The notes under the pieces are model-generated. The model saw only the letters and a program-made list of their open reading frames with translations. It searched no databases and was not told the DNA's origin. From positions 2,240,001 through 2,304,000 of the forward strand of contig OZ245838.1 of assembly GCA_965228735.1 (NCBI GenBank): a DNA stretch of 64,000 nt, written 5' to 3'. This DNA comes from Planctomycetota bacterium (GTDB lineage Bacteria; Planctomycetota; UBA1135; UBA2386). Position numbers and translations under genes: made by a program. Shown one piece after another: positions 1 through 17,117 of the stretch (positions are counted from its first letter, which is position 1; each line of letters opens with the position of its first letter).

Positions 1-873
1 GCCCGCGGTGTGCAGCGCGGCCCGGATCGAGTGGTCGTGGAGGTGGTTCGCCAGATCTTCGATCTCGACCGCGAGCGGCCGGTCTTGCGGGAACTTCCGC
101 TGCAGCTCGCTCGCCGTCTGCCACGCCGAGCGGTAGGTCTCGATGGCGCGCGTGGCCAGGTTGGCTGACGCCGTCATCTGGCGTGACTTCGCGATCGCCT
201 GCCGGAGCAGGCCGTCGCCCTTCGTCACGGTGCGCCGGATCGGCTCGAGTCGGCGCTCCACGTAGGAACGGATTTTCTGATCGAGGCGCGCCTGCCGCTC
301 CGCCCGCCGTCGGGCCGAGCGGTCGCGCTCGAGTGTCTCGACCGCCGTCGCGAACTCGTCGAGCTCGGTCTCCGACAGCGTGTGCGGGAACCTCGTCGAC
401 AGCTGCTCGAGCAGCTCGACGGATCGCTCGATCCGATCGTTCTCGATCGCGTCCCGGAGCCAACGCTGCAGCTCACGGCCCGCCCAGGCGTCGACGAGCC
501 GGCGGGACTTCACCGGGTCCGGCGCGTCGCCGAGCCGATCGAGCGCGCCCACGACGTGCCGCATCGTCGCCTCGGGCAGATCGAGCCGCGCGGCGCGGCG
601 CGCGAGCCAGAAGTGATCGGCGAAGCTCGCCGGTGGCCGCGCGATCTCCTGCAGACGGAACGCCGACCGCGGCTCGAACTCGGCGAGCTCGTGCCGCACC
701 TCGATGCTGCCGTCGAGCCCGAGGATCCGCAGCTTGGCGGCCTCGCCGCGCACCTCGAGCACCTGGACCCGGGCGTGGGTCCCGTTCTGGAACTGCACGT
801 TCAGGATGCGGTCGTCGGGCTGCTGCTGCAGTCCGACTACGGCGATGGTCGCAACGAGTAGGGATGCGGTCAT
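1..873 (-). CDS. Secreted helical hypothetical protein, 3' end outside the window
   Basis: Not in the ORF track because it runs off the edge. Translated by hand as an open frame from ATG 873 (MTASLLVATIAVVGLQQQPDDRILNVQFQNG...) to base 1. AGGAG RBS at 881-885 and a signal-peptide-like N-terminus. Confidence 0.75.
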   Translation of the reverse strand, partial: MTASLLVATIAVVGLQQQPDDRILNVQFQNGTHARVQVLEVRGEAAKLRILGLDGSIEVRHELAEFEPRSAFRLQEIARPPASFADHFWLARRAARLDLPEATMRHVVGALDRLGDAPDPVKSRRLVDAWAGRELQRWLRDAIENDRIERSVELLEQLSTRFPHTLSETELDEFATAVETLERDRSARRRAERQARLDQKIRSYVERRLEPIRRTVTKGDGLLRQAIAKSRQMTASANLATRAIETYRSAWQTASELQRKFPQDRPLAVEIEDLANHLHDHSIRAALHTAG

Positions 874-1016
874 GGGAACACTCCTGTGGGAAGGCGGGAC
901 CTCCCGCCTCCGGTCTCCTAGGCCGCGACTGGACCGCGATTCAAGCCGCTGCGGCCGAAACGGGGCCCGCCCGTTGCGGCTGGCCGCGACCCGAACGACC
1001 GGGTCGAGAGCCCTCC

Positions 1017-3683
1017 TCAGTGACCGCCGGAGAACGGGTCGATGTCGGCGAGCGACTCGAGGTTCGCGCCCGCTTCATGGTCGAGCTCGAACAGTCGAAC
1101 GTCGTCGTCGCCGCCGTGTCGCACCGCGAGCAACCGCCGCGAGCGCGTCAGGTAGTAGCGGTATCGCGGGCGATCGGACGTGCCCGGGATCGCGTCCGAT
1201 TCGACCCAGGCAACGACGACGCTCTCGGGCCAGAGGGCGATCGCGTCGGTCAATCGTCGGTGCAGGTCCGAATCCGCGGCCGCGAGCTGGTCGAACTCCG
1301 AGCGCGTCGGGAACTCGAAGTCGAGGCCGAGTCGGTCGCGGGCGCGCGCTCCGTGCTCGTCCCAGCTCGGCAACCGCGCGCCGTCGCTCCCGAAGTCGAA
1401 CTGACCGAGCACCGCGCCGGCGTCACCGGAGAACACGGTGAGGTAGCGCGCGAACGACGCCGGATCCGGTTCGTCCTCGACGGGTTCGAAGTCGCGAATG
1501 GGCCCCGCTCGGAACAGCTCGCGGTGACGCCCCATCGGGCTCTGGTAGTAGAGGTCGTGCAGCAGTGCGACGCGGAACTCCGACACGTCGACCGACAGGC
1601 CGACGAGAGCTTCACGCATCACGGGCAACAGGCAGGCACCGCGCGACACCGCGGTCTTCGCGTGCTCGGGATCGAACTCGATCTTGCCGGGCGCCAGCCC
1701 GAGACCGCCCTCCGATCGCGGCCGCGCGAACATCTGCCGCACCAGCGGGATCCAGCTCGACTGCCCGGCAAGCACGATCCGATCCGGCCGCTGGCTGCCG
1801 ACCAGTCGCCGCGCCCGCATCACGGCGTCACGCAGCGGCGCTTCGATCGCCGAGTAGACTTCGGCAACGCTGACGGTGACCTGAGCCTGCGCCGTCGGAT
1901 GATCTGCCGACGGCTGGCCGCGCACCTCGTCGGGCAGCTGCGACAGCGCGAATCCCATCCGCACGTCGGCCCCGTCGTCGGCGCTCAACGCGACGTCCCG
2001 CGAACGGTTCTGCGCTGCCTGGAACAGCTCGCACTTCAACGTCTCCGCCCGATCCCAGAGCCACGCGAAGTTCCGCTTGGCCACCGGCACGAGCGGGGCG
2101 TCCGGGTCGGGGCGGAAGCGGGTCGGTATGAGCCGCTCGACCGCTTCCTCGACTTCGGGCGGCAGAGTGGCGGCGCCGATGTCCGCCGCCAGGCGATCCC
2201 AATGCTCGTTCACGACCGCGGCCGCGCGAGCATCGACTTGCCCTTCGGTCGCCCCCGCAGCAGCCGAACTCGGCAGCAGGAACAGTCCTGGTGCGGCCGG
2301 CTGCGGAACCGACTCCGCCACGGTCTGCTTGTGGCCGACGAACCGGTCGGGGTCGGCCAGCGCCATCGCGATCCGCCGCTTCAGGATGCGGAACACGGCC
2401 AGCGTGACCTGGTCCCCGCCGTACGGCAGGCTGTCCGAACCGCAGAGCTCGAGCCGGATGTGCAGCGACTCGCCGAACAACTCCAGGTCCGCCCGCACGT
2501 GCGCCAGGTCGATCGTGCCGCCGCCGAAGTCGAAGCAGAGCATCCGCAGCGTGTAGCGCTCCCCGACGCTCTCGCCACGCACGATCTCCTCGCGGTCGTG
2601 CCACAGATCCTGCAGCAGGCGATCCCGCGTGTCGGGATCGCGGGTCCATTCGTGCAGGTAGAACAGGCCGACCGCGCTCGCTTCGTCGAGCGACAGATCG
2701 AGGTCCTCGTCGCGATACCCGAGGCGGCGGAAGACACCCTTCCACCGATCGAGCTGGCCCTGGTCCCACGTCGGCGGGTAGGTGAGCATGAGGCGCGGCA
2801 GCCGCGCCTGCACCTTGGGGTTGTTCTGACACTGCTGGCGCACGAAGCGCCCGAGTTGGTAGACGACGTCTTCCGGCGCGATGTAGCTGGCGCTGCCCCG
2901 CAGGTCCGCGGCCAGGATGCGGCGCCGACCGAGGTGCCGCTTGCTGCCGATGAGCAGGGCGTGCGGATCCGCGTCCGGTCGGGCGCGATAGTCGGCCAAC
3001 GCCTGACGCCCGACGGCACACGCTCCGGGCACGAGCTCGCGAAGTGCGGCGAGGTCTCGAACCAGCACGGCAGCCGGGACGTTGGGGACGGCGCTCTTCG
3101 AGTGGATCGACGTGTCCAAGTCGGGGTTCCAGGTCGTTCCTCGACCCGCGTCCCGGCGGCGATGGTAGACGGCGACCGCCGCGCTGTTGGTGCCGAGGTC
3201 GACGGCCGCGTAGCCGTTGAAGTCCTCGAGGTCGACGATCTCTTCGAACGACAGACTCAGCTGCTGGGTGGCGAGGCCGTCGACCACGCCCGCGAGACGT
3301 TTGCCGTCCGTCGCGACCGGCACCAGTTCGATCACGCCATGGAACCGACCGTACGGGAAGTTGCTGTTGTCGGTGTCGACCAGCACGTCGAGCCACGACT
3401 CCCCGGGCGGCACGACGACCTGGTCGGCGCGCGCCTCCGGCGCGGACCGCGGCATCGTCAGCTCGGCAGCCACGCTGGTCAGGTCACCGACGACGACCTG
3501 CAGCCAGGAGTGCTCGGGGAAGTCGAAGCGCACGTCGAGGACGATCGGCCCCCCGCTCGTGTTCTCGACGATGCAGTGCTTGCGGAGGATGCCGGTCCGC
3601 CGCGAGACGGTGGGGAACGCCATGAGCGGCGTGCGCAGAACGAGGGCGCCCGGGCCCCCGACCTCGGTCTCGGACTTGACCAT
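1017..3683 (-). CDS. Hsp70/actin-like ATPase-fold protein with N-terminal beta-rich (Ig-like) extension; not a canonical DnaK
   Basis: Motifs AVDLGTNS (phosphate-1), LTYPPTW, LDEASAVG, FDFGGGTIDL (phosphate-2), YGGDQVT, AETLKCEL, LAGQSSWIPLV (adenosine), AKTAVSRGA. About 150 aa extra N-terminus. ATG overlaps the upstream stop (TGATG at 3681-3685). Confidence 0.85.
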   Translation of the reverse strand: MVKSETEVGGPGALVLRTPLMAFPTVSRRTGILRKHCIVENTSGGPIVLDVRFDFPEHSWLQVVVGDLTSVAAELTMPRSAPEARADQVVVPPGESWLDVLVDTDNSNFPYGRFHGVIELVPVATDGKRLAGVVDGLATQQLSLSFEEIVDLEDFNGYAAVDLGTNSAAVAVYHRRRDAGRGTTWNPDLDTSIHSKSAVPNVPAAVLVRDLAALRELVPGACAVGRQALADYRARPDADPHALLIGSKRHLGRRRILAADLRGSASYIAPEDVVYQLGRFVRQQCQNNPKVQARLPRLMLTYPPTWDQGQLDRWKGVFRRLGYRDEDLDLSLDEASAVGLFYLHEWTRDPDTRDRLLQDLWHDREEIVRGESVGERYTLRMLCFDFGGGTIDLAHVRADLELFGESLHIRLELCGSDSLPYGGDQVTLAVFRILKRRIAMALADPDRFVGHKQTVAESVPQPAAPGLFLLPSSAAAGATEGQVDARAAAVVNEHWDRLAADIGAATLPPEVEEAVERLIPTRFRPDPDAPLVPVAKRNFAWLWDRAETLKCELFQAAQNRSRDVALSADDGADVRMGFALSQLPDEVRGQPSADHPTAQAQVTVSVAEVYSAIEAPLRDAVMRARRLVGSQRPDRIVLAGQSSWIPLVRQMFARPRSEGGLGLAPGKIEFDPEHAKTAVSRGACLLPVMREALVGLSVDVSEFRVALLHDLYYQSPMGRHRELFRAGPIRDFEPVEDEPDPASFARYLTVFSGDAGAVLGQFDFGSDGARLPSWDEHGARARDRLGLDFEFPTRSEFDQLAAADSDLHRRLTDAIALWPESVVVAWVESDAIPGTSDRPRYRYYLTRSRRLLAVRHGGDDDVRLFELDHEAGANLESLADIDPFSGGH

Positions 3684-5983
3684 CAGGCCGCCCCTCCTTC
3701 GGCGCGCGCCGGCACCGCAACCGGGTCACCGCTCGCCAGCGCCGGCAGCTCGTCCTCGAGCGCCGCGATGCGACGGCACAACTCGATCGTGCTCATCAGC
3801 TCGGCCCAGCGGTTCCGCGCCACCGGCAGCCCTTCGGGACCGGCAGGCGGCCGCGGCAGCCGGGCCCGGTCCGTCGCGTGGCGCTGCCCGAGCGCGCCTT
3901 CGGCGGCGACGAAGAACTCGTCGAGCTCACGTTCGAGGTCTTCCCCGTCGAGGAACAGGTGCAGCCACAGGTCGTCGAGCAGCCGCGTGTAGATGTTCTC
4001 GTAGATCCACCCCGGGTAGAACTCGCAGAACACCGAGACGAGCAGGCTCTTGAGCTGCGCCGCGGGCACGCGGCGGTTGAGCCGCCGCAGTTCGCGGCCG
4101 CGCGGCATGTGGAAGAACCCGTGCCGGACGATGCCCTGCACCGAGTGCCGCAGCGTGCCCTCGAACCGCGTGAGCAACCGGTCGAGCCGCTCACACTGCT
4201 CGGGCGCGCCGTTCAGCAGGCCCTCGACGTCGCGGCGCGCTCCGCCTGCGAGGACGCGTTCACGGAAGACGCGCCGCACATGGCCATCGACCGCTTCGAT
4301 CACCCGCGCCTGCAGGTCCTGCCGGATCTGATCCGCGGCGTTGTCCGCGATGATCTGGAAGTCGAACTCGGCCACCGGGTCCTCGCGGAGCGGCGCCTGC
4401 AGAATGGGCCGTTCGAAGTGCGCCGCGATCGCGCTCTGCATGTCGGCGTGCAGGCGGTCGAGGATGCGATGGAGATCCTTGCGCAGCCCGCCACCGGTCG
4501 CACCCGCCTGCAGGTAGCCGTGGCGGAAGTGCTGAACCAGGCCGACGAGTCGATCGCGCTGCTCGCGATGGGCCTCGAGCACCGCCTGCCGCTGCAGGTC
4601 CACGGGATCGGTGTCGCGGTACTTCTCGAACTGCGGCGCAGCGGCGGCTTCGAGGTCTGCAAGGGCAGCCTGCAGGTTGTCCACCACCTCCCGGATCTTG
4701 CCGGGGAACGCATCCGTGTCGAGGAACCGCCGGATCCGCGACCGCAGATAGCCGACACCGCCCGGATCGGTCGGCTGACCGAACGGCTCCACCCACCGGT
4801 CGAGCCCGGGCAGGCGCGACGCAACCGACCGGAACACCTCACCGAGGCGCGCCGCCTCGGCGCGGGCCGACTCGTCACCCTGGCGCGCCGCGCGACCGAG
4901 CGCCGCCGACGCGAGGAAGAAGCGCTCCCGCGGCAGGTCGTTGCCGATCGTGTCCTTCGACAGGTAGTCGACGGCCCGGACGAGTTCTTCGGGCTCGGCG
5001 CCGAACTGATCGACCTTGTTGAACACGAAGAACGTCTTCTGCTGATAGCTGCGGGTCAACCGCTGGAAGCTCGCGACCACCTCGGTGTCCGCCTGGTTGC
5101 CGGGCTGGAACGCCGTCACGACGATGCAGTCCGCCATGTTGCAGAACTCGCGAATCGCGCGCCGGTGGTAGTCCTCCTTGCAGTTCAGCCCCGGCAGATC
5201 GAGGAAGACGACGCCCTGCTCGAGCATCGGGCTCGGCACGCGCAACTCGACGTCCCCCACCAAGGCGAGCCACTCGCGGGTGACCCACAGCGTCGGATCG
5301 CCGCCCGCGTCCTCGTAGGCCCGTTCTTCCGCGGGTGTCGCGGAGAAGTAGCGGTGTCCGCCCGCGCCATCCGGCAGGATGCCGCCGCCCGCGATGAACG
5401 GCGCGCGGGCCGAGAACGGGGTCGGCAACGCGCCGATCTCGTCGTAGCGCGCGAGCAACCGGGCGAACCGCGCGATGCTCTCCTGGGCGGCTGCACCATC
5501 GACGAAGGCCGCCGGGTCGGCCGCCGCAGCGGCAGCGTGCTCGAGGGTCTCGAACGGTCGCTTGAACGCGCAATCGAGCGTCGCCCGAACGCGCGCGAAA
5601 CACTCCGCTCGATCGACGTATCGAACGCGGCACGAGGGCTCGGCACCGTGCCGAATGACCGTGCAGACGGCAGTCATCGGAATCGCCGACGCGGGCAGCA
5701 GACCGTCCTGCTCCAGCAGCAGATTCAGCAACGTCGACTTGCCGCTGCTGAACGCGCCGGTGACCGCGACCAGGAACTCGGCCTGGCTGGTGATGTCGAC
5801 CGTCCGGTTCAGCGCGTGGTTCGGATCATCCGGCCGGAAGTCCAGGTCACGCCCGCCCGAGAAGCTGCCGAGCACGCGCAGGCGCTGGAACTCCTGGGTC
5901 GCATCACGCAGGCGTTGCGCGTAGTCGTGCAGCCCCGCGAACCGCTGCCGCAGGGCCGAGGAGTCGTTGTTCTGAGTGATCAT
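3683..5983 (-). CDS. Dynamin-like GTPase (bacterial dynamin family)
   Basis: G1 VTGAFSSGKSTLLN, G2 region LPASAIPMTAV, G3 FLDLPG, G4 FNKVD, then a long helical C-terminal stalk. Start placed at ATG 5983 (MITQNND) because the longer ORF overlaps the next gene. Confidence 0.88.
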   Translation of the reverse strand: MITQNNDSSALRQRFAGLHDYAQRLRDATQEFQRLRVLGSFSGGRDLDFRPDDPNHALNRTVDITSQAEFLVAVTGAFSSGKSTLLNLLLEQDGLLPASAIPMTAVCTVIRHGAEPSCRVRYVDRAECFARVRATLDCAFKRPFETLEHAAAAAADPAAFVDGAAAQESIARFARLLARYDEIGALPTPFSARAPFIAGGGILPDGAGGHRYFSATPAEERAYEDAGGDPTLWVTREWLALVGDVELRVPSPMLEQGVVFLDLPGLNCKEDYHRRAIREFCNMADCIVVTAFQPGNQADTEVVASFQRLTRSYQQKTFFVFNKVDQFGAEPEELVRAVDYLSKDTIGNDLPRERFFLASAALGRAARQGDESARAEAARLGEVFRSVASRLPGLDRWVEPFGQPTDPGGVGYLRSRIRRFLDTDAFPGKIREVVDNLQAALADLEAAAAPQFEKYRDTDPVDLQRQAVLEAHREQRDRLVGLVQHFRHGYLQAGATGGGLRKDLHRILDRLHADMQSAIAAHFERPILQAPLREDPVAEFDFQIIADNAADQIRQDLQARVIEAVDGHVRRVFRERVLAGGARRDVEGLLNGAPEQCERLDRLLTRFEGTLRHSVQGIVRHGFFHMPRGRELRRLNRRVPAAQLKSLLVSVFCEFYPGWIYENIYTRLLDDLWLHLFLDGEDLERELDEFFVAAEGALGQRHATDRARLPRPPAGPEGLPVARNRWAELMSTIELCRRIAALEDELPALASGDPVAVPARAEGGAA

Positions 5984-6030
5984 GGGTGTCCGTTCGAGGG
6001 AATGAGCGATGGGCGGCGGACGCCGCTGCG

Positions 6031-7179
6031 TCACCGCGTGAAGTTGCCGAGCAGGCGCGTGCCGTCCGCGCTGTAGAGCGTGTAGAAGACGACGCCACGC
6101 GCGCTCGATGTCTGCCGGCTGACGAACGGGAAGCCGACGACGATCGGCTTCCGCCAGGTCCGTTCGCTCCCGACGAAGTCCAGCGGCTCGCACGGTTGCC
6201 ACGCCACGTTGCGGCCCAGCTGTTCGAGCAGCTGCGACTCGTCCTCCTGCAGGGACAGTTCGGCGAGCGCGCCCGCGTCGATCGGCGCAACCTCGACCGA
6301 GTCGATGTAGCCCGGCGTCCGCAGCTGACTCACGACGTCCGTGCGGTACGACCCGTAGCCGAACAGGAAGACGTTGTCCTGGAGCGTCTGGAACTGCCCG
6401 AGCTCGCTCTGCGCGGTGCCGTAGCGCATCTGCCGCAGGAACTGCCCGACGTCACCACGAAACCCCTCGACCTGGTAGACCGCGACCTTGGCGAGGTTGA
6501 GGCGCCAGTTGAACGACACGTCGCCCTGGCGCTTCACCCGCGTGCCGTCGCCCGCGGCGAACATGTCGCTCGCGTTGAGTTCGACGTCGACGGAGCTCGT
6601 GCCGCGGCCGAGCTCCTCGTATTCGATGGCGAACGTGCCGCCGTCCTTGCGCCGCAGCACGCCGGGCAGGCTCTCACGATACGTCACGAGAGTGCCCGCG
6701 CCGGCGGCCTCGCGCCGGGAACCCGCGGCGGGCACGACGGTCCCGCCGATCTTGAACGCGCTGCTCGCATCGGCCAGCTTGAACGAGAGGTTCGAGATCA
6801 GGATCGGGATCTCGTCGGCCGCGAGATACTGCTGCACGAGCATGCCGCGGATCTTCGCGACCTCGCGCGGGCTCTCCTGGACGCTCAATCGCAGCCGACT
6901 CGCATCGGCGGCGTCTCCGAGACTTTCCTCGAGCAACGCCTCGAACGCGCCCTCGTCGAAGTCGTTCGCCGCGGCGGCGAGACCGACGGTCAGGCGCTGG
7001 ATCGGCGCGAACTCCGGCGGCGGCACGTCAGTGCCGGCCCGCAACATGGCGTTCTCCTCCTCGAGCCGCGCGTTCTCGGCGCGCAGCTGCGCGACCTCCT
7101 GCGACAGGTTGTGACAGCCCGAGGTGGGAACGAGAAGGGTCGCCGCGACAGCGCACGGCAAGAATCGACGAAGGTGCAT
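6031..7179 (-). CDS. Hypothetical lipoprotein with N-terminal coiled coil
   Basis: MHLRRFLPCAVAATLLVPTSG-C lipobox-like signal, then heptads (LSQEVAQLRAENARLEEENAMLR). ATG 7179 overlaps the upstream TGA (TGATG). Confidence 0.75.
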   Translation of the reverse strand: MHLRRFLPCAVAATLLVPTSGCHNLSQEVAQLRAENARLEEENAMLRAGTDVPPPEFAPIQRLTVGLAAAANDFDEGAFEALLEESLGDAADASRLRLSVQESPREVAKIRGMLVQQYLAADEIPILISNLSFKLADASSAFKIGGTVVPAAGSRREAAGAGTLVTYRESLPGVLRRKDGGTFAIEYEELGRGTSSVDVELNASDMFAAGDGTRVKRQGDVSFNWRLNLAKVAVYQVEGFRGDVGQFLRQMRYGTAQSELGQFQTLQDNVFLFGYGSYRTDVVSQLRTPGYIDSVEVAPIDAGALAELSLQEDESQLLEQLGRNVAWQPCEPLDFVGSERTWRKPIVVGFPFVSRQTSSARGVVFYTLYSADGTRLLGNFTR

Positions 7180-10100
7180 CACAGGTTCGTTCTCTTGGCG
7201 GAGCCCCACACCACGGATGGCAGGGACAGTTTCTTGAGCAGCACGGCCGCGCGCTCGCGCAGCGGTGCCGGCAGCGGCTGCCGGCCGATCTCGCGCAGCG
7301 TGCTCAGGTGGTCGCGCAGCGTGTCCTTGTCCATCACGACGATCTGCGCGAGAGTCAGCGGCGCCACGGCACCGGCGATCAGGTGGTAGCTGCGGAGCGG
7401 TTCGAGTTCGGGTGCGATCGCGAGGCCAGCGAGCTTCTGCCGGTGCGCTTCGGCGAGCGTCCCGTCGTAGTCCTGCGGCCAGGTGATCTCCTGCGCGGCG
7501 CGGACCGCGTAGAGCAGGGAGTAGTGCGCGAAGGCGTCGACCGGCTCCGTCGCTTCGAGCAGCTCGAGCTGACGCTGCAACCGCGCCGCCCGCGCACGGG
7601 TGGCCGGCGCGATGCCCGTGCCACGCAGTTCGCCGGGCGCCGCCAGCAGGTCGTAGTTCGGCTCCTCGCGCACGACGCGGAAGTCGGCCAGCAAACTCGC
7701 GAACCGAACGGGCCACGCGGTCGAGCCGGCATCGACCGGCCGCTGCTCACTCGCCGCCGCATCCGCGCCGAGCGCTGCCAGATACGCGGGGGCCCAGCTC
7801 GCGGCCTCGGCCTCGCCGCCAGCCGCGCGCTCCAGGTGCGCTCGCGCGAGCTCGTCGTCGCCGTCGTAGAAGTGCGCCGTGTGGCCGCTCCAGAACAACG
7901 CCGCCGCGCGTTGCGCCGGCGTGATCCGATCCCAGACCGCCGAGTCTGCGATGACCTCGTCACGCAGGCGGCGACCGACGGTCGCCGGGTTCGTGGCCAC
8001 GCCGGCCAACAGACCACGCACGACGAGGCCCGCACGCACGTCGGCGAACGGCGGAAACGGCGCCGGCGTGACCGGTGCTGCGGCCGCGACCCGAAGTTCC
8101 TCGCAGCGGTCGAGCAGCTGCCCCGCGACCGCCGCATCGGCCTCGACGAACGCGCGGACGAACGCGGCCTCCCACGAGCTCGCTTCGGCCGGCCACGGAA
8201 CGACCTCGCCGGTCGTCAACCAGCCGAGCGCCGCCGCCGCCGCCGCGTAGCCCGGCGCGTCGACGAACGCATCGGCGCGCAGCATCGGCACCGGCGCGCC
8301 CTCGAGGAAACGCTTGAGGAACGCGGCGCGGAAGCGGGCGCGCATCGACGGGTCGTCGGCGTAGAGGCCGGCGGCAGCCGCGAACTCGCCGCGATCGAAC
8401 AGCCGATCGGCAGCCGCGCTCCGGACGCCGTCCGCCGGCCGGCCCGACTCGAGGCAGTCCAGCAACGCGGCGGAGTCGGCGCTCCCGTCGACGTAGGCCG
8501 CGAGGTGACCACGACAGTCGTCGTAGACCGCGAGCTCGACGCTGCCGAGCTCGGCGTGATCGGTCACCGCCAACTCGAAGCGGCCCGACGGCAGCGTCAC
8601 GGTGCACGCGAACTCCTCGAGCAGCTCCGCGCCTGCGAGTTCCGATTCCGTCGGCGCGCCGCCGACCGGAGTCACGAGCGCGCGATCGACCTCGATCGAC
8701 CGCGGCGAATCGGCGTCGACCGTCGCGCCCACCGGCCGCAGCGACAACGCGGAAGCGGCGGCGAGGTTGGTGCCCCGCAACACGATTCTCGTCGGCTTGC
8801 CCGGTTCGAGCAGCGCCGGCTCGACCGTGCGGACGACGGGCCGCGGTAGAACCCGGAGACTGGCCGCCGTGGGCACGGCGTCGGCCGCGGTCATCCCGAG
8901 CGCGATCCGATAGTGACCGGCCGGCACCTCGGCGCGGTAGACACCGCGCGTCACGAGTCCGGCCCCGAACTCGACGTTCGCCGGTTCGCCCGTCGACGCC
9001 GAGCGTGCCGACCCCATCGCGGAGGCCTCCGCCGGGGAAGACTTCGCCGTAGCAGATTCTGTCGGGGATGGCTCCGAGCGCGTGGCCACGGCCGCCTCGA
9101 CGGCAACCGGCACGCCGGTCGGCACCAACGCGACGACGACCGGTTCCGCACCAGCCGCAGCGCCAGGACCAGCATCCGAAGCGGCGCTCTCGCCGATCAA
9201 TCCGAGCCAGGGCATCGGTGTGGCCTCCGCGACGGCGAGCTCGAGCTCGATGCGGTCGCCGCGGCCCGGAACGACGGACTCGGGGATGGCCTCGACGAGG
9301 CGCGGGCCGACGATCCGCAGGGATTGGCCCTCGTCGAGGAACACGCCGTCGACCCGCACGCGGTAGTCGCCCTCGGCCGCCGCCGGCAGGCTGCCGGCCC
9401 GAAGCACGAAACGGCCGTCGGTGAGCGGGACCTCGATCGGGGCGCGGCCCGAGAGCGGCACGAGCGCGACATCGGCGAGGTCGTCGAGCGGGAAGCCCGC
9501 GGCTGCGGTGAGTTCGAACGGCGTATCGACGAACCGATGCGCCACGACGGGTCGCACGCCGAACCCCGGCGACCGAACGGCGAGGCCCGCCATCGCCGCT
9601 CCGGCACCGAACCGGCCGAGCGGCCGCAGTCGATAGTCCCCGACCGGCAGCGTCGCCGGCAACGGCAGCTCGTAGCGCCCCGCGGCGCCCGTCGACGCCA
9701 CGTCGATCACGGCGACCGGCTGCTCGCCCACAGGGCCTGCCGGCGCGGTCGGCAGCAGTTCGACCTGCTGGAGGTTCCGCCCCAGGAGCACGACGCTGGC
9801 GGGTCGCGACGCGAACACCGTCGCGTCCTCGATTCGTTCGAGCACCGGGCGATAGTGCTCACGCACCGCGAGACCGCCGCTCACGAGTCCGACGAGGACC
9901 ACCAGGGCGGCGGCCAGCTGCACGATCCGCGGTGTCGGATGACGGAGTCCCAAGGTGATCCCGGTCGGCATCCCGCCGAACGTCAATCGCAGCCGACCGC
10001 GCGCCTTGACGGGCGCGACCAGCAGGCGATGGCGACTCGACTCGGCATCGACATCAGCGGCCGAGGCGGACTCGCGATCGGCATCGGGCACCGGCTCGAC

Positions 10101-12188
10101 GCTCCGGAGCGCGCCCTCGACCACGCGGCCGCGCCGATCCACGAGCTGATACCCGCGCTTGCCGAGCTCGGGATCCGGCAAGGCCGTCCCGCTGAGGAGC
10201 AACGGTTCGGGGCCGGACTGCCGGCGCCCGAAACGCACGATGCGACGGCGTTCCCCGTGCCACTGCGGCGCTTGGACGAGCAGGTGGACCGGCGTGTCCC
10301 GCCCGTTCACCCGCAACGTGTAGGCGCCCGCGGGAAAGCCGACGGGCAGCGTCAGCTCGGCGTTCTGCGCGTCGACCACGCGGGCGTGGAACCCGTCCGG
10401 GGTCAGCTCCCCGAGGTCGAAGACCATGTCGGGATGCAGGTTCTCGCCACGGAGCTCGAGCTGCCAGTCGCGATGATTGCGAACGGTCGCCACCGAGAGG
10501 GCGTCGGCCTCGACCACGGGCTCGGGCCGGGACGCGAGCACCTCGACGGCGAGCGGCGTCGGCAGGAAGTTCGCGCGGATCTCGTAGTGACCCGGCACGG
10601 TGTCCTGCGGCAGCCGCAGCCGAACGAGCTCGCCGTCCTCGACATGAGCGCCCTTCTCCCCGAACGGGGTTGCGCTGCGCACGATCTCGCCGCCTTCGAC
10701 GCCGCCGTCCGCGACGCCACCGACGGCAGTCAGCTGCACGAGCTCCGCACTGTCGGTCGCGGGCGTTGGCCCCTGCGGCCCCGCCGGCGACAGCGTCCAG
10801 GCCACGTTGCGCGGCAGCGCGATCCCGCGCACCGTGATCTCGAGCGGGTCGCAACCGGCCCACGGCAGGTGCGCCGACGCGGGTTCGAGCTCGAGCCACT
10901 GCGTCGCGACGACCTCGAGCGTCGCCGTCGTGCGACGATTGTTGATCGATACCGAGTAGGTGCCGCCCGGCAACCCGCCCTCGACCTGCACGACGATCCG
11001 ACCCGAACTCGCCGACTCGACGTGCACGCCATCCGAGCGCTCGTTGAGCGTGACCCGAACGAGCTCGTCCGGCAGGTCCTGGCCGCGAATCTCGAGCGTC
11101 GAGTCTTCGAGACCGTGGATCCGGCTCGGCTGCAGGTCGACCGCGAACGTCGTGTAGTGCAGCAAACCTTCGCCGGCGGCGAACGCGTCGAACGGCTCGT
11201 AGCCGTGCTCGACGAGGTGCCGCAGGTACGAGGTGACCGTGCGATACAACTCGTCTGCCTTGCGCGCGATCGTCGCCGCGTCGGCGCGGTCCTCGCGCGG
11301 CCGCAGGCCTTCCTGGATCAGGTACTCGGTGCGGGCTCGCGCCGTGTAGAGGTGGTCCAGGATCTCGAGTTCCTTGCGCCGCAGCTCCTCGGCGTTGGCG
11401 CGCCAGCCCATCCTGCCGGCGCGCTCGTGCAGCTCACTCATGAGCCGCGTGGCCCGACTCGGCAGTTCCTCGGTGGAACACGACCGCTGCAGCAGGTCCT
11501 TCAGGAACGCGGCGAGACAGTAGACGTCACCGGCCGGATCGAGCGCTCCGAGATCCGGCACGTCCGCGCGGGTGAGGAACAACTCCGGGGGGTAGTACCC
11601 ACGCGCCACGTAGTCCGCCGGCACCGCGTCCGGACTGGCGAACGTGACGCCGGTGTTGAGCAGCTCGAAGCGGTACGGCGAGCTCGACTCCAGCCCGCCG
11701 TCCTGCGGCAACGCCACGACGCTCTTGGCGTTCCACTGGCCTTGGAGCACGCCGTGGCGGTGGAGGAACTCGCACGCTTGCCCCAGCTGCCACGTCAGCC
11801 CCACGAACTCGAACGTGTCGATCGCGTGCCCCGAGAGCAGCAGGTCCTCCAAGAGCTGGAAGGCGCCCGGCGACCACGCATACCGCACGATCCGCACCTC
11901 GCCGCCCTCAGCGCCGACCTCCAGATCCAGCATCGGCGGCAGCGCTCGCGGCGGGGCGAAGCGGTTCTGGTCGTTCGACAGCACCTCGTGCGCGCGGCTA
12001 CCGAGCGTGAAGGCGACGGCGAACCGCTCCGGATCCAGGTGCTGGATCAGCACCGGCAATCGCCCGCGTGGGTCCTTGGGCAGCACCCGTTCACTGCGTT
12101 CGAACCGACCGATACCGCGCATCAACTCGGGCACGGCTTCGGCCGGATGATCGGCCGCACGACCGACGCGACGCATCGACTCAGTCAC
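7179..12188 (-). CDS. Large single-pass membrane protein: degenerate kinase-like domain, IPT/TIG-like repeats on both sides of a TM helix, C-terminal TPR-like helices
   Basis: Kinase-like remnants LGQACEFLHRHGVLQGQWNAKSVV, YYPPEL, GDVYCLAAFL. Repeated P..(V/L).....(I/L).(I/L)RG.NL motifs. TM IVQLAAALVVLVGLVSGGLAV. GTG 12188 lies 6 nt after GGAGG. Confidence 0.75.
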   Translation of the reverse strand: MTESMRRVGRAADHPAEAVPELMRGIGRFERSERVLPKDPRGRLPVLIQHLDPERFAVAFTLGSRAHEVLSNDQNRFAPPRALPPMLDLEVGAEGGEVRIVRYAWSPGAFQLLEDLLLSGHAIDTFEFVGLTWQLGQACEFLHRHGVLQGQWNAKSVVALPQDGGLESSSPYRFELLNTGVTFASPDAVPADYVARGYYPPELFLTRADVPDLGALDPAGDVYCLAAFLKDLLQRSCSTEELPSRATRLMSELHERAGRMGWRANAEELRRKELEILDHLYTARARTEYLIQEGLRPREDRADAATIARKADELYRTVTSYLRHLVEHGYEPFDAFAAGEGLLHYTTFAVDLQPSRIHGLEDSTLEIRGQDLPDELVRVTLNERSDGVHVESASSGRIVVQVEGGLPGGTYSVSINNRRTTATLEVVATQWLELEPASAHLPWAGCDPLEITVRGIALPRNVAWTLSPAGPQGPTPATDSAELVQLTAVGGVADGGVEGGEIVRSATPFGEKGAHVEDGELVRLRLPQDTVPGHYEIRANFLPTPLAVEVLASRPEPVVEADALSVATVRNHRDWQLELRGENLHPDMVFDLGELTPDGFHARVVDAQNAELTLPVGFPAGAYTLRVNGRDTPVHLLVQAPQWHGERRRIVRFGRRQSGPEPLLLSGTALPDPELGKRGYQLVDRRGRVVEGALRSVEPVPDADRESASAADVDAESSRHRLLVAPVKARGRLRLTFGGMPTGITLGLRHPTPRIVQLAAALVVLVGLVSGGLAVREHYRPVLERIEDATVFASRPASVVLLGRNLQQVELLPTAPAGPVGEQPVAVIDVASTGAAGRYELPLPATLPVGDYRLRPLGRFGAGAAMAGLAVRSPGFGVRPVVAHRFVDTPFELTAAAGFPLDDLADVALVPLSGRAPIEVPLTDGRFVLRAGSLPAAAEGDYRVRVDGVFLDEGQSLRIVGPRLVEAIPESVVPGRGDRIELELAVAEATPMPWLGLIGESAASDAGPGAAAGAEPVVVALVPTGVPVAVEAAVATRSEPSPTESATAKSSPAEASAMGSARSASTGEPANVEFGAGLVTRGVYRAEVPAGHYRIALGMTAADAVPTAASLRVLPRPVVRTVEPALLEPGKPTRIVLRGTNLAAASALSLRPVGATVDADSPRSIEVDRALVTPVGGAPTESELAGAELLEEFACTVTLPSGRFELAVTDHAELGSVELAVYDDCRGHLAAYVDGSADSAALLDCLESGRPADGVRSAAADRLFDRGEFAAAAGLYADDPSMRARFRAAFLKRFLEGAPVPMLRADAFVDAPGYAAAAAALGWLTTGEVVPWPAEASSWEAAFVRAFVEADAAVAGQLLDRCEELRVAAAAPVTPAPFPPFADVRAGLVVRGLLAGVATNPATVGRRLRDEVIADSAVWDRITPAQRAAALFWSGHTAHFYDGDDELARAHLERAAGGEAEAASWAPAYLAALGADAAASEQRPVDAGSTAWPVRFASLLADFRVVREEPNYDLLAAPGELRGTGIAPATRARAARLQRQLELLEATEPVDAFAHYSLLYAVRAAQEITWPQDYDGTLAEAHRQKLAGLAIAPELEPLRSYHLIAGAVAPLTLAQIVVMDKDTLRDHLSTLREIGRQPLPAPLRERAAVLLKKLSLPSVVWGSAKRTNL

Positions 12189-12407
12189 GACACACCTCCG
12201 CATCGCATGGACTACTGGAACGGGAACGGAACGGGCGGACGTTCGAGTCGTGCATCAGTCGAACCCGGATGGCGGGGTCTCGTTGGGAAGCCGAGGCCGG
12301 AACGCGAGCGGCGCGAGGTCGCGCCGCCCGTTCCAGCTGGCGATGGCTCGCAGCAGCCGCAGCCGCGTAGCGCGAAAGGGCGCGCAGCGTTGCACGCGAC
12401 GAAACGA

Positions 12408-12593
12408 ATCGCGGGTCTGGTGGTCCGTCGCGGAAATTCGCATCGAGAGTCCGCGCCCCTGAACGCCACTCGCGGCGTTGCGCCTGCTCGGCATATCCAC
12501 CGACATTCCTGCGGCGGCGCGCCTTGCGAGCGACGCCCAGGAACACGGACTTCTGATCCGAACCTCGGCGACAGACCACTGGTGTCCCGCGAT
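12408..12593. repeat. Long imperfect inverted repeat (hairpin) upstream of the pseudokinase operon
   Basis: gtggtccgtcgcggaaattcgcatcgagagtccg (12420-12453) matches the reverse complement of 12546-12579 at 26/34. Also atcgcggg (12408-12415) pairs with cccgcgat (12586-12593), and ctcgc pairs with gcgag nearer the centre at about 12498. Confidence 0.7.
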
Positions 12594-13333
12594 GAGGACA
12601 TCGTCGTCCTGTATCGAGTGCGCCGGCGTGGGCGCGCGGACTCGCACGGTTCTCGGCGCGCGGCATCGCGACAACGGGCGAGTTCGAGCGCGATCGTGGA
12701 CGCAGGTTCTGGTCCGCAATGGCCATCGCCCACCCCCCGTGCAAACCGCGGACCCAGCGTGTCGAAATGCATCGACGACCGCCGGCAGGAGCGCTGAATG
12801 CAACAGACGATGAGCGCATACCACTTCCGAACGCAACGGGTTGCGGCGACTGACACTTCACGGCGAGCTGAGCTGGACGCCGGAGCCGACAAGGAGCGGC
12901 GGCGACGCGCGCGCTGCCGCTGCGGATTCATTCCCGTGCGCTCTGCCGCGACGCAGACCGCATCAGGCAATCACGACCGGCGACAACATCGATCGCGCGC
13001 ACTCGACCGCGATCGACTTCCCGGCACGGCACGCGCAGTGCCGATCGAACTGGTGCGATCGCAGCGGCGAATGCGATCGGACGGGACCACGCCGCCGACC
13101 TGGCGCAGCGCTGTAGCGGGCGAACTCGGTCGGAGAAGCTGGGTCATGGCGGCCTCGCTTGAGGCTACTTCCTGCCACGAACCGGATAGTCCTCCCCGTC
13201 GAGCGGACAAGCCGAATCGCCCGATTCTCGCCCGAATTCAGCCGTTCACGCCCTACGCGTTCCCTGCACGTTTCGTGCCGGGCGAACCGATTCCGTCCGC
13301 CCGAGCAGCCCACGGAAACCGAGCCTGTTGCGT

Positions 13334-16300
13334 CTAGGAGTCGAACATCAGCGTTCCCGTCGTCGTCGTCATCACGTTCTCCACCGGGTCCATGATGACG
13401 AACTGGATGTCGAGCTCGAGACCCGGCGGCACGGCCGTCGCATCGAAGTCGAGGCGGCCCTCACCGCGACTGCCGAGGACCCCGACGAACGGCGATCCCC
13501 CACCGAACGAGTCGAGCAGGAGCGTCTTCGTGCCGACCTGGTTGACGCTGTGTCCGAGGTAGGCGCGCAGGCCCCACTGCTGGCCGGCTCGATCGGCACC
13601 GGCATCGAGCACGATCGTCATCGCGCCGCCCGGGCCGTCATTGACCCGCACGTCGACGTCACCCGCGGTGCTCGGCGTGAACGGTTGCAGGTTCGGCGAA
13701 CCCATCGAGCGGATCGGGAACGGGCGCCAGTCGTGACCGACATCGTGATCGAGCCCGTCGGCGTTGCGCGCGAGGCTCTGGGAGATGTCAGGCGCGAGCG
13801 CCGCCGTGCGGAAGTCGTCGGGATGCGACGGCAGACGCGGATCGTTGTGTTCCACCGGCGAGTTCGCTCGCGTCGCGCGGAGCAGGTCCACGAGTCGGCC
13901 GGCCGCGTCGTAGAGGCCGATACTGAACTCGGCCGCGCCGAGCGTCAGGTCGTTGCTGCGACGGTAGCTGACGCCGCTCGGCGTCTCCGCCGGCGGCTGG
14001 GCCGTGTTGCCGATGACGAGCAGCTCACCGGTCGTCAACACCTCGGTGTCGGGGAACGGCTGCAGGGTCTGGATCGGCGCGCCCTGCGCGGCCGAGTACC
14101 GCAAGGTCCAGCCCTGCAGGTTGACCGGCGACTGGTCGCGACTCAGCAACTCGACGTAGGTCGCGCCGCCACGAAACACCTCGTTGAGCTGCACCCTGGC
14201 GGTGGTGAACAGCGCCGCCCGAGTGTTGCGCGCCCCGGCCGACTGACTCTCGAGGCCGAGTGACCGGCCGTAGTCGGCGGTCCAGTCCGTCGCCGAGTTC
14301 GAGTCGAGTCCCCAGATGCGTTCGATTCGTCGCGACGTGAAGAACGGTCCGCTCTGGTGGTTGTGCACCGCGCCGCGGAACTTGCCGCCGAGGCTGCCTT
14401 CGTAGTAGCCACCTCCAACCGCAGCGGAGCGCACCTCGTCGATGACGTAGCCGTTGGGCGCCACGAGCCCGACGCAGAAGTCCGTCGCCGCCGTGGATGC
14501 GCCGGTCAGGACGGGGAACACCCGCACGGACAGCGGGATCTCGGCGAAGCCCTGCGTCGCGAGCTGCGTCCGCAGCACGATCGTCTCCTGCGGCTGGATC
14601 ACCACGCCCGCGAGCGCCATCGAGTTGCCTCCCGTATGACCGATCGGGAAGAGGTCACGCCACCGCACTCGCCAGTCCGTGAGGTCGATCGGCACGGGCG
14701 AGAAGTTGGTGAGCTCCACGGCACCGGGCACCGTCGGGGGAATCGCGGAGACCACCTCCGTGATCATCAACTTGTCGGCGACCGGGCCAACCGGGATCTT
14801 CGCGGACATGATCGAACCCGAGTCCGGGCACTGGCCGTCCGAGAACGGGCTGCCGATCAGCGCGTCCATAACGCCGTCCAGGTTCTTGTCCCCGATGTCG
14901 AGTCCAAAGCCGAAGCCATCACTCGACGGCGACCTTTGCGTGAACCACAGCAGCGTACCGTCGCGCCCCGACCGCAGTTCGATACGACCGGTCACGGCCG
15001 TGGTGCCGGGACCAGCGATGAGGAAGTCCGTTCCGCCATCGTCGTTCACGTCTCCCGCGCCAACAACTCGGAAACCGAAACGCCCGCCGAAGAACGTACC
15101 GCTCCACGTCGCAACGGGCTGCAGCCCGACGATCTGGCCGGTCAGGTACCGGAACACGCGCACGTAGCCGTTCCCGACGTGCCCGGCGTGCGAACCGTTC
15201 TCCGGCGCACCAACGGCAATGCTGCCGACCTTGCTGCCGTAGATGCTCGGAACGACCGCAACCGAGCGTCCGAAGTAGTCGTACGGCCCATCGCCCTGGG
15301 CACCGACCAGCGCGGTGCCGAACGACCCTTCGTAGATCGCCACGCGGCCGCAACGAGTTGCACTGGAGCTGCTGAACAACGGCGCCCCGACGGCGACTTC
15401 GGGCCGGCCGTCACCATTGAGGTCGAACCCGCCACTGACCGCATCACCGAACCGCTCGCCGGGTTGCAGACCCGGGATCCCGAAGAACACGCCCGCGGAT
15501 GCACCGGAGATCAGGTCGACGCGCCCCCGGTTCGACGCGTGATCGGGACTGCCGACCACGAGGTCCGGCGTGCCGTCGTTGTCGAGGTCACCGGCCGCAC
15601 CGACAGACGTCCCGAACCCCGGGCCCGAGCCGAAGCTGCCGCCATCGATGAAGTGCACGACCGCGCCCGTCATGCCGTCGAGAACATGCACCGCACCGTT
15701 GCCCTGCCCGGGCGCGCCGCTCGCGACCTCGGGGATCGAATCGCCGTTCAGGTCGCCGATCCGCGCCAACGCGTAGCCGATGTTGGCGTTGATCGTCGTT
15801 CCGCTGAACGTCCACAACGCCGAGCCGTCGGCCCCCGAACGGCAATACACCTGGCCCCGGCCGCCGTTGAATCCGGGCCGGCCGATCAGCGATTCCTCGT
15901 AGCCGTCACCGTCGATGTCCGGCAGGGCAACCACTGCATGACCGGTCCATTCGCTCGCCGAGTTGCACGGCGGCGCGGTCACGGTCGTGCTCACGACGTT
16001 GGAAGCACCGCCGGCGAGCACGTCGTTGAGCACCCGGAAGTTCAGCTGCCCGACGGGAAAGTTCGATCCCACGTCCATCGAACCGATGAGCTTGGTCTTG
16101 CTCGTCACCGTCGTCGGCATCGTCACCCATGCGCCGTTCTGCAGGTACTGCAGCTTGGAGCCCTGCGTGCCCTTGTAGGGCTCGAACGACCCGATGAAGA
16201 AACCGGTTCCCGTGACGTGCACGTCGATGGCGCCGGAGCCGGTGAATACCGTCGTCGGCACGTGACTCGTGATCGACGGCCCGGTCGGAATCCCGTACTT

Positions 16301-17059
16301 GGTCTGCAGACCCTGCACGTCGTAGTAGGACAGATAGGACAGGTTCCCGATCACGTTCTGGTACTGCTCGAACCCCGGCCGGCACCGGATCGTGTCGAGG
16401 TTGCCGACCCCGAACGACTTGCGGTGGTAGTGCATCACCGATTCGAAGTCGTACGGCCCGATGGGCTGCCCGTTGAACAACGAGAAGTTGCCGTTGCACG
16501 AGCCACCGCCGCAGCCGAACTGCTCGATGTTGTTCCACAAGATGCTGACGTACAGATCGCGGTCCGGACGCTGATGCTCGTGCTTGAACCCGAGCGCGTG
16601 GAGCAGTTCGTGAACGAGGATGAAGTGATCGTCCCAGTGCGAGGCGCCGACGTTCAGGATCTGGCCGAACTGCTGCATGCCGACCTGCGAGTTGCTCACG
16701 TTGCTCTGCGCCGGGTTCTCGCGAACCTGGATGTGCTGGACGCCGGACGTCCACGGCACGAAGCGGACGCCGCAGACCGCTTCGATCTCGGCGAACGCGA
16801 GTTTCATCGCGACCTGCTCGCCGTAGGACACCGTCGCCGAGTCGAACGTGTACGGCACGATGCCGCCCGTCCAGGTCGGCCCGTCCCAGTGCGAGTCGCC
16901 GAGCAGCGCGGTCCGCGGCACCCACATGTCGTCGAGCAGCACGTGGCCCGGCGGCGGGTAGACCGGCGTCCGCGGCTGGGCCTGGGCGGCGAGCGAGAGG
17001 GACAGGCCGCTGATGCCCGTCATGAGCATCGCGATCCACACGTGACGAACGGTTGCCAT
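13334..17059 (-). CDS. Secreted astacin-family (M12A) zinc metalloprotease with FG-GAP propeller and two lamin-tail-like domains
   Basis: HELLHALGFKHEHQRPDRD zinc motif, YDFESVMHY Met-turn, FG-GAP repeats (GDLNGD, GDLDNDG, GDVNDDG with GAP), LTD-like starts LMITEV...VELTN and VQLNEV...YVELL. Signal peptide from ATG 17059. Confidence 0.9.
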   Translation of the reverse strand: MATVRHVWIAMLMTGISGLSLSLAAQAQPRTPVYPPPGHVLLDDMWVPRTALLGDSHWDGPTWTGGIVPYTFDSATVSYGEQVAMKLAFAEIEAVCGVRFVPWTSGVQHIQVRENPAQSNVSNSQVGMQQFGQILNVGASHWDDHFILVHELLHALGFKHEHQRPDRDLYVSILWNNIEQFGCGGGSCNGNFSLFNGQPIGPYDFESVMHYHRKSFGVGNLDTIRCRPGFEQYQNVIGNLSYLSYYDVQGLQTKYGIPTGPSITSHVPTTVFTGSGAIDVHVTGTGFFIGSFEPYKGTQGSKLQYLQNGAWVTMPTTVTSKTKLIGSMDVGSNFPVGQLNFRVLNDVLAGGASNVVSTTVTAPPCNSASEWTGHAVVALPDIDGDGYEESLIGRPGFNGGRGQVYCRSGADGSALWTFSGTTINANIGYALARIGDLNGDSIPEVASGAPGQGNGAVHVLDGMTGAVVHFIDGGSFGSGPGFGTSVGAAGDLDNDGTPDLVVGSPDHASNRGRVDLISGASAGVFFGIPGLQPGERFGDAVSGGFDLNGDGRPEVAVGAPLFSSSSATRCGRVAIYEGSFGTALVGAQGDGPYDYFGRSVAVVPSIYGSKVGSIAVGAPENGSHAGHVGNGYVRVFRYLTGQIVGLQPVATWSGTFFGGRFGFRVVGAGDVNDDGGTDFLIAGPGTTAVTGRIELRSGRDGTLLWFTQRSPSSDGFGFGLDIGDKNLDGVMDALIGSPFSDGQCPDSGSIMSAKIPVGPVADKLMITEVVSAIPPTVPGAVELTNFSPVPIDLTDWRVRWRDLFPIGHTGGNSMALAGVVIQPQETIVLRTQLATQGFAEIPLSVRVFPVLTGASTAATDFCVGLVAPNGYVIDEVRSAAVGGGYYEGSLGGKFRGAVHNHQSGPFFTSRRIERIWGLDSNSATDWTADYGRSLGLESQSAGARNTRAALFTTARVQLNEVFRGGATYVELLSRDQSPVNLQGWTLRYSAAQGAPIQTLQPFPDTEVLTTGELLVIGNTAQPPAETPSGVSYRRSNDLTLGAAEFSIGLYDAAGRLVDLLRATRANSPVEHNDPRLPSHPDDFRTAALAPDISQSLARNADGLDHDVGHDWRPFPIRSMGSPNLQPFTPSTAGDVDVRVNDGPGGAMTIVLDAGADRAGQQWGLRAYLGHSVNQVGTKTLLLDSFGGGSPFVGVLGSRGEGRLDFDATAVPPGLELDIQFVIMDPVENVMTTTTGTLMFDS

Positions 17060-17111
17060 ACCCACCCGTTCCCCAGCGGCTTGGCGCGCGACAAGAACGC
17101 GGCAGGAATCC
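17057..17111 (-). promoter_or_regulatory. Putative ECF-type promoter, probably leaderless (TTCTTGTCGCGC-N12-GGGAAC-N8-ATG), copy 1
   Basis: Same motif and identical spacing to ATG as at 25368-25422; no Shine-Dalgarno. Confidence 0.55.
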
Positions 17112-17117
17112 GCCGAC

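Follow-up and report, generated by a model that had tools for sequence, protein, structure and literature searches.

A conserved four-gene cassette of a pseudokinase-Ig protein, a predicted lipoprotein, a dynamin-like GTPase and a lidless Hsp70 as one version of a wider Planctomycetota module

Several described bacterial systems share parts with the locus analysed here, a four-gene cassette (genes A to D) on the reverse strand at positions 1017-12188 of a 64,000-nucleotide stretch, hereafter called the window, from a Planctomycetota bacterium (assembly GCA_965228735.1, contig OZ245838.1, positions 2,240,001 to 2,304,000). As far as the accessible portions of the cited sources go, a scope that applies to all literature statements made below, the SrfABC operon encodes SrfA, a single-pass protein with a pseudokinase fold, along with an Hsp70/actin-fold ATPase and a large P-loop GTPase (10.64898/2026.09.18.752743, PMC6950479), and SrfA has been modelled as the platform for SrfB and then for SrfC (10.64898/2026.09.18.752743). 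Cyanobacterial dynamins of the 'chaperone clade' are encoded by a dynamin-like gene that is followed by a gene with a DnaK domain, an arrangement read as a link between remodelling and chaperone function (PMC5827413). YukC/EssB unites a cytoplasmic pseudokinase, one transmembrane (TM) helix and an extracytoplasmic domain in a non-catalytic hub (PMC9600267, PMC12599244), FtsZl1 (Tubulin_2)-vWA operons with kinase, GTPase and vWA genes are predicted to act in membrane remodelling (PMC2875224), and DO-GTPase/GAP1 conflict systems join a TRAFAC GTPase with HSP70, GrpE, vWA, beta-sandwich repeats and membrane proteins (PMC7159879). The cassette of the window is a conserved four-gene variant of the recurring theme of a dynamin with a dedicated Hsp70, apparently undescribed in this form, and it belongs to a module that occurs more widely in Planctomycetota in several versions.

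The cassette comprises gene A (7179-12188; 1669 amino acids (aa) from a GTG start, with an alternative ATG start at 12203), gene B (6031-7179; 382 aa), gene C (3683-5983; 766 aa) and gene D (1017-3683; 888 aa), all on the reverse strand. The coordinates given in the initial annotation for the co-oriented genes, for the TGATG overlaps at the A/B (7177-7181) and C/D (3681-3685) junctions and for the gap of 47 base pairs (bp) between B and C (5984-6030) were verified in the sequence. Contigs from three of four sequencing runs cover positions 1-13500 without a single difference in sequence, and those of the fourth cover 1-10772, with the window's own source possibly included among these runs. The order A-B-C-D recurs in all six loci that carry a close D homologue (L004, L005, L006, L007, L011 and L071; the contig of L004 breaks off within A, and one assembly supplies both L005 and L006), which supports a conserved four-gene unit; the outcome named initially as refuting, homologues that are not found together in other genomes, was not observed. 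Five more pairs of B and D homologues lie apparently on shared contigs, one of which is the contig of L004, and the members of one further pair carry locus tags that are two apart. The four-gene order is beyond chance, and by tblastn none of the four genes has a paralogue in its own genome. Six other loci (L009, L010 and L013-L016; four metagenomic and two genomic) matched by the FDFGGGT motif only and were dropped, since they hold unrelated short Hsp70-like genes.

Gene C encodes a bacterial dynamin-like GTPase, which by its sequence is of the SynDLP/BDLP type. It matches Pfam Dynamin_N (PF00350) at E 3.9e-18 (66.5 bits versus a cut-off of 27), in profile comparison its best solved relative is SynDLP (E 1.1e-34), followed by C. 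jejuni DLP1 and BDLP, and it has the dynamin G domain with a helical stalk by which bacterial dynamin-like proteins are recognized. The dynamin G1-G4 motifs are intact as initially annotated, with G76/S79/G81/K82/S83, T104, D262-P264-G265 and D325 invariant in 27/27 aligned dynamins. No TM helix was detected in C. A basic segment at aa 612-642, whose net charge is +5 to +7 in all seven four-gene versions versus -6 to +3 in the other 20, may bind lipids. As a separate observation, the genome holds a second Dynamin_N match (G000 C1:238224-238757, L027 and L093; E 1.1e-12), which is unmatched by the dynamin profile of the module.

Gene D has an N-terminal beta-sandwich (aa 12-152), an ATPase domain (153-695), a linker, a substrate-type beta-sandwich with a helical insert and a PFSGxH tail. 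The window's D has no match in Pfam, NCBIfam, PADLOC or a single-sequence PDB search; its 20 homologues show 38-67% identity, and three of them are labelled Planctomycetota. Its AlphaFold model (predicted local distance difference test (pLDDT) 79.8, predicted template modelling score 0.73) matches Hsp70s, and aa 156-873 of the model align to residues 2-505 of DnaK with Z 30.1 and a root-mean-square deviation (rmsd) of 4.2 over 457 aligned residues, while the profile alignment with DnaK extends to LGQFDF, the counterpart of DnaK LGRFKL. Judged by model and sequence, D belongs to the Hsp70 superfamily, with actin-fold ATPase, linker and substrate-type beta-sandwich. The initial statement that D has no recognisable DnaK substrate-binding domain has to be revised, since the beta-sandwich is present in the model and the helical lid alone is missing, D ending 15 residues beyond the aligned beta-sandwich. 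D stands outside canonical DnaK, HscA and HscC, lacking the lid as well as any NCBIfam or Pfam HSP70 match.

The nucleotide-binding residues of D are intact, as had been noted, at the positions of DnaK D8, K70, E171, D194, T199 and D201; across 40 aligned members of the D family, the D8, E171, D194, D201 and G341 positions are kept in 40/40, T199 in 39/40 and K70 in 38/40. The position of DnaK R167, which we take to be a J-domain contact, is Arg in 0/40 family members versus 3/3 DnaK-type controls. The initial annotation had also seen no DnaJ or GrpE nearby, and no match to these families was found among the four genes and the four neighbours scanned. The PFSGxH tail is conserved in at least 90% of the 40 aligned sequences. 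Its resemblance to the NPF/DPF motifs of endocytosis was rejected as evidence, as the conserved unit is PFSGxH and it is retained in loci without a dynamin.

The product of gene A contains, in order, an N-terminal pseudokinase, a helical segment, four immunoglobulin (Ig)/IPT-like repeats, a TM helix, about four further Ig-like repeats and a C-terminal helical region, which is 'TPR-like' by sequence pattern only. On the reverse strand, the pseudokinase domain (aa 25-245; 11454-12116), with LHRHGVLQGQWNAKS as catalytic loop, NTG at the DFG position and PPE at the APE position, is followed by predicted cytoplasmic Ig/IPT-like repeats (aa 345-750; 9939-11156), a predicted TM helix (aa 755-773; 9870-9926) and a predicted periplasmic part (7182-9842) made up of Ig-like repeats (aa 783-1224) and the helical region (aa 1225-1669). 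By sequence, the N-terminus is a kinase-derived pseudokinase without the HRD Asp: it lies nearest to Pkinase clusters by ESM features (score 0.90), it matches the soluble pseudokinases of related loci in profile comparison (96.7% probability, E 3.6e-10), and a joint profile of A and these soluble pseudokinases matches PknB-type kinases in the PDB. In all six close A copies, HRD is changed to QGQ or an HGQ-like sequence and DFG to an NTG-like one, with replacement of the HRD Asp and of the two Mg-binding residues, the Asn and the DFG Asp.

The Ig-like repeats of A give only a weak Pfam match (TIG, E 0.006); the cytoplasmic repeats align to one another at 92-97% probability in four of six pairs, and the first periplasmic repeat aligns to the cytoplasmic ones at 95% probability. 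A hydrophobic stretch occupies the TM position in 6/6 aligned homologues, and a second one, at aa 1017, is found only in the window's A. The earlier description of A as a protein with a single membrane helix, Ig-like repeats on both sides and a pseudokinase holds (kinase motifs degenerate in 6/6), and the kinase side would face the cytoplasm. A word search with full-length A retrieved one homologue, and six more were obtained via the neighbourhood loci. Homology between the N-terminal sandwich of D and the Ig repeats of A was considered and rejected, the profile probabilities being at most 1.2%.

Gene B encodes a predicted lipoprotein of an orphan family, in which Cys22 is followed by a coiled coil, an alpha/beta domain and two beta-sandwiches. 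The initial lipoprotein assignment agrees with the presence of Cys22 after a hydrophobic stretch in 22 of 23 sequences, the lipobox being read by eye. B has 20 homologues at 40-63% identity and is present in 2/401 phylum genomes, each time within the four-gene cassette. Its structure model (pLDDT 79.1) gave no Foldseek match at E <= 0.001 that would identify a relative of the fold, and an ESM Atlas search with B returned one match at 0.79. The best wide-library match of aa 118-229 is to C2-type sandwiches (Z 5.8, rmsd 3.3, 95 aligned) and aa 283-374 resemble Ig-type folds at Z of about 5.4, both values within background; a C2-like lipid-binding role for B is thereby only a lead from the model. 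No homology of B was found to the exported proteins encoded at the same position in five distant loci, the profile probability being at most 11%.

Beyond the close homologues, a D profile yields 369 representatives at E <= 1e-10, and a wider D profile has matches in 70/401 phylum genomes at 1e-25, with 39 below 1e-50, the cassette's own genome included. Thirty-one of these 70 matches (E 1e-25 to 1e-34), confined to the N-terminal half of the ATPase, were set aside as probably ordinary DnaK; L086 and L087, both from this set, turned out to be family members, which makes this cut a rough one. Forty neighbourhoods were compared, consisting of 32 chosen places (10-20 kilobases) and nine earlier loci less one duplicate (L008 being identical to L060). 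A co-oriented dynamin lies upstream of the D-family Hsp70 in 28 of the 40, and a kinase-like domain is encoded one or two genes ahead of the dynamin in 27 of these 28, the last (L004) being on a cut contig; the kinase-like assignments are weak in L076 and L086, and in L068 the gene is divided between two frames. None of the 26 inspected kinase-like domains has the catalytic Asp (HGN, HGC, HGH, HGQ and others), and the window lacks it too, whereas two control kinases from the same loci retain HRD.

The layout of the window (layout I) has the pseudokinase-Ig-TM scaffold, lipoprotein B, dynamin and Hsp70. In layout Ib (L017, L018, L074, L076 and L077), the pseudokinase protein is longer, three of the five having a detected TM helix, and ahead of dynamin and Hsp70 comes an exported protein unrelated to B. 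Layout II, in about 16 loci, combines a soluble pseudokinase of about 290 aa with dynamin and Hsp70, to which exported vWA proteins and a GrpE-like gene are usually added. Of the 22 dynamin loci outside layout I, 16 have a GrpE-like gene after that of the Hsp70, an indication that the Hsp70 cycle operates in this family. Trees of the dynamins and of the Hsp70s have 13 of 24 splits in common, including 10 of the 12 strongly supported ones.

Some members of the family and its neighbourhoods depart from these layouts. A Tubulin_2 (FtsZl1-type) gene stands directly ahead of a distant D-family Hsp70, in the place of the dynamin, at L085:7685-11143 and L087:6194-10639. At L076:11988-19999, two reading frames come after the Hsp70 gene, one for a protein of 1443 aa that contains a second Hsp70-type domain and the other a further related open reading frame (ORF), and at L017:12841-20000, L018:12658-20000, L072 and L074 proteins of 1000-1700 aa with an embedded GrpE-like segment are encoded after the Hsp70. 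The family members of L078, L079, L082 and L083 reach about 1260 aa through a long extension at the N-terminus, end in PFCGxH and match SrfB weakly; they have no upstream co-oriented dynamin, and some of the genomes carry two copies. The split of the pseudokinase gene at L068:10390-11408 falls at an ambiguous base, and the Hsp70 gene at L069:5130-7679 has an internal stop, each being either an assembly error or a broken gene.

With a probability of roughly 0.45, the four products form one inner-membrane remodelling or repair machine that is docked by the pseudokinase and reset by the Hsp70. The observations behind this reading are gene linkage, domain content, intact nucleoside triphosphatase residues, family-wide loss of the kinase Asp and co-inheritance of dynamin and Hsp70; the topology, all physical contacts, the trigger and the output of the machine are inferred. 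In such a machine, the pseudokinase would dock dynamin C and Hsp70 D at the inner membrane, D would drive the formation or resetting of the dynamin assembly, and lipoprotein B together with the periplasmic arm of A would set place and time on a cue from the envelope. A role of the pseudokinase as docking hub is suggested because it adjoins the dynamin even as a small soluble protein, and D is likely to be J-protein-independent and dedicated because both the lid and the Arg at the position of DnaK R167 are missing and its gene accompanies that of the dynamin. The dead kinase, the GTPase and the lidless Hsp70 are constant, and the variable elements lie outside the inner membrane. In its favour it is also counted that the gene order is kept in the six close loci, that B is known from within the cassette only, that aa 612-642 of C are basic in every four-gene version, that the closest solved relatives of the dynamin are membrane-remodelling bacterial dynamins, that the YukC/EssB pseudokinase-TM hub provides a precedent for the docking role (PMC9600267, PMC12599244), and that the modelled SrfA platform provides another (10.64898/2026.09.18.752743).

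Several observations weigh against such a machine. In 12 of the 40 neighbourhoods no dynamin lies upstream of the Hsp70, and in two of these a Tubulin_2 gene adjoins it, hence the D-family Hsp70 is not bound to the dynamin alone; in L008/L060, the pseudokinase gene lies on the opposite strand. A GrpE-like gene is found in 0/6 type I loci, and the GrpE-like family of the module has no profile match anywhere in the cassette's own genome, which leaves nucleotide exchange unaccounted for. The congruence of the dynamin and Hsp70 trees may stem from shared descent alone. Among 339 class genomes, the four-gene cassette occurs in its own genome only, and two others hold a distant version; it was not found in the two other genomes of the genus, which are 88% and 90% complete and in which no insertion site could be placed, since the flanks, at about 70% DNA identity, are dispersed among many contigs. 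So rare and patchy a distribution is easier to reconcile with an accessory or conflict function than with housekeeping repair.

A bolder extension, which must be regarded as doubtful, is that pseudokinase, dynamin and lidless Hsp70 constitute an unrecognised class of remodelling machine, of which SrfABC would be a remote branch or a convergent twin; A would span the inner membrane, read an outer-envelope lipoprotein, stand in for a J-protein and fire the Hsp70 on the dynamin polymer. If true, this would be a receptor-triggered, chaperone-reset dynamin cycle for inner-membrane budding or invagination in a bacterium. Planctomycetota have unusual inner-membrane dynamics, in view of which a lineage-typical remodelling module deserves attention. 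Targeting and disassembly of bacterial dynamins are largely open questions, for which the cassette names candidates, the receptor pseudokinase for anchoring and the dedicated Hsp70 for reset, and it is small enough for reconstitution. The constant pseudokinase furthermore serves as a marker that unites many unannotated Planctomycetota loci.

Rather less probable is a defence or conflict system, in which the periplasmic arm and the lipoprotein would sense phage, predator or competitor, the pseudokinase would relay the signal, and the Hsp70 as a threshold switch would free the dynamin to seal the membrane or to kill the cell. DynA reportedly confers phage protection (PMC12998192), and both the rare, patchy distribution of the cassette and the swappable envelope modules round a constant core would suit such a role. 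In addition, conflict systems with GTPase, HSP70 and GrpE have been predicted (PMC7159879), and the dynamin has weak matches to LeoA (E 1.5e-10) and LeoBC, of which that to LeoA is limited to the P-loop region. Against this reading, the ectodomain is not hypervariable, with 31-33% identity in the periplasmic part of A versus 43% in the pseudokinase, and no toxic effector domain was recognised in the cassette. Genes A to D have a guanine-plus-cytosine content of 0.69-0.72 versus 0.694 for the genome, so that composition gives no hint of recent transfer, and in the genome sample the wider family occurs throughout whole families (11/11 and 3/3). The 19 neighbouring proteins scanned with PADLOC gave no defence-specific match, only a generic kinase; no relative was found in viral contigs or plasmids, and a further viral and plasmid search showed only ordinary Hsp70s among 30 of 171 records listed.

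It is unlikely that the cassette is a transport machine, in which A and B, organised by the pseudokinase, would cross the envelope as conduit or receptor, the Hsp70 would ratchet a polypeptide and the dynamin would shape the membrane, for export (vesicles included) or uptake. YukC/EssB sets a precedent in type VIIb secretion (PMC9600267), vesicle export has been proposed for SrfABC (10.64898/2026.09.18.752743), D retains a substrate-type beta-sandwich according to its model, and related loci encode GrpE-like and exported vWA proteins. However, the cassette holds no channel, beta-barrel or multi-pass protein, with one conserved TM helix only, and no conserved cargo gene, the flanking genes differing in every four-gene locus. 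At the level of membrane action, the repair, defence and transport readings are not exclusive.

That the cassette is a divergent SrfABC orthologue set, with the same toxin-like role and a lipoprotein added, is highly improbable: three kinds of part are in common, the D-family profile matches SrfB (97.4%, E 1.3e-11), 12 of 21 family members have weak SrfB matches (best E 7.3e-6) and SrfB likewise lacks the R167 Arg, but the D profile is far closer to DnaK (99.8%, E 2.7e-29), C has only P-loop matches with SrfC (5.2%), A reaches 0.1% with SrfA (two SrfABC loci compared), A stems from PknB-type kinases and has no lipocalin domain, the gene order is different, SrfB falls outside the D family in a tree whose deep support is weak, and PF10139 attains its cut-off in 0/301 phylum genomes.

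Around the cassette, no sigma-70 promoter or operon terminator above chance level was found at the operon. A dispersed, partly self-complementary repeat of about 165 bp (12417-12584, without assigned strand) lies upstream; six more matches to it, at 70-92% identity, are spread over five places in the genome, and it is probably not part of the system. Downstream, 143 bp beyond D and on the same strand, an ORF at 1-873 (reverse strand) has a signal-peptide-like start, helical content and no Pfam match, and it has no counterpart after D in the other four-gene loci. The upstream region 13334-21163 (reverse strand) encodes a secreted astacin/FG-GAP/lamin-tail protein, an extracytoplasmic function sigma factor and an active Ser/Thr kinase-TPR protein, none of which is kept beside the cassette in other loci.

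Among the known systems, SrfABC had initially been cited as loosely pairing an actin/Hsp70-like with a dynamin-like protein. By the profiles the cassette does not map onto it one-to-one, an outcome that had initially been named as refuting, whereas the word 'loosely' understates a closer architectural parallel, since SrfA is itself a pseudokinase-TM protein (10.64898/2026.09.18.752743). Both follow the same ground plan and SrfB is a distant relative of D; the cassette differs in adding a lipoprotein, in having Ig repeats and a helical region in A where SrfA has a lipocalin, and in the PFSGxH end of D. No match to the SrfB family PF07520 was found in the window's D, to PF10139 (SrfC) in C or the relatives scanned, or to NCBIfam SrfA in A, with which the topology class alone is common. 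By sequence, the cassette is therefore not a member of SrfABC, but it may work like it, and it offers a new frame for the SrfABC mechanism. The 'chaperone clade' resembles the cassette in its dynamin-like gene with a DnaK-domain gene behind it, and no pseudokinase, lipoprotein or Ig scaffold is described in the accessible text (PMC5827413). The dynamin-Hsp70 pairing, initially held to be notable for a planctomycete, had thus already been described in cyanobacteria, and the suggested parallel to eukaryotic vesicle scission and uncoating found no support, the dynamin being of SynDLP/BDLP type and no J-domain partner having been seen.

In DO-GTPase/GAP1 systems, a Walker B glutamate and an active kinase theme are described (PMC7159879), whereas the cassette has DLPG (D-x-P-G in 27/27) and an inactive kinase; the four genes have no family match to GAP1, whose coverage by the libraries is uncertain, and the word 'dynamin' has 0 occurrences in the main text of PMC7159879. 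The likeness to YukC/EssB is one of architecture; no other type VII component was recognised in the cassette, and the partners are a dynamin and an Hsp70. With SynDLP, BDLP, DynA and LeoA/LeoBC (Eleos), C shares the dynamin G domain, its motifs all intact, and a long stalk of helices, but the cassette has a single TM-less dynamin rather than a tandem pair, in an operon with three unrelated partners; Eleos calls for LeoA and LeoBC together, and the one dynamin present gives partial matches only. FtsZl1-vWA operons come close through the distant D relatives that adjoin Tubulin_2 in L085 and L087, and differ from the four-gene cassette, which has neither a tubulin-like gene nor vWA. A 2025 review of bacterial pseudokinases (PMC12599244) has, in its accessible text, 0 occurrences of dynamin, Hsp70 or Planctomy-, and within the main texts covered, mostly of open literature, no published description of the constant pseudokinase-dynamin-Hsp70 trio was found. 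The present analysis adds the constant pseudokinase, a layout with receptor and lipoprotein that lacks GrpE, and a revised Hsp70 anatomy.

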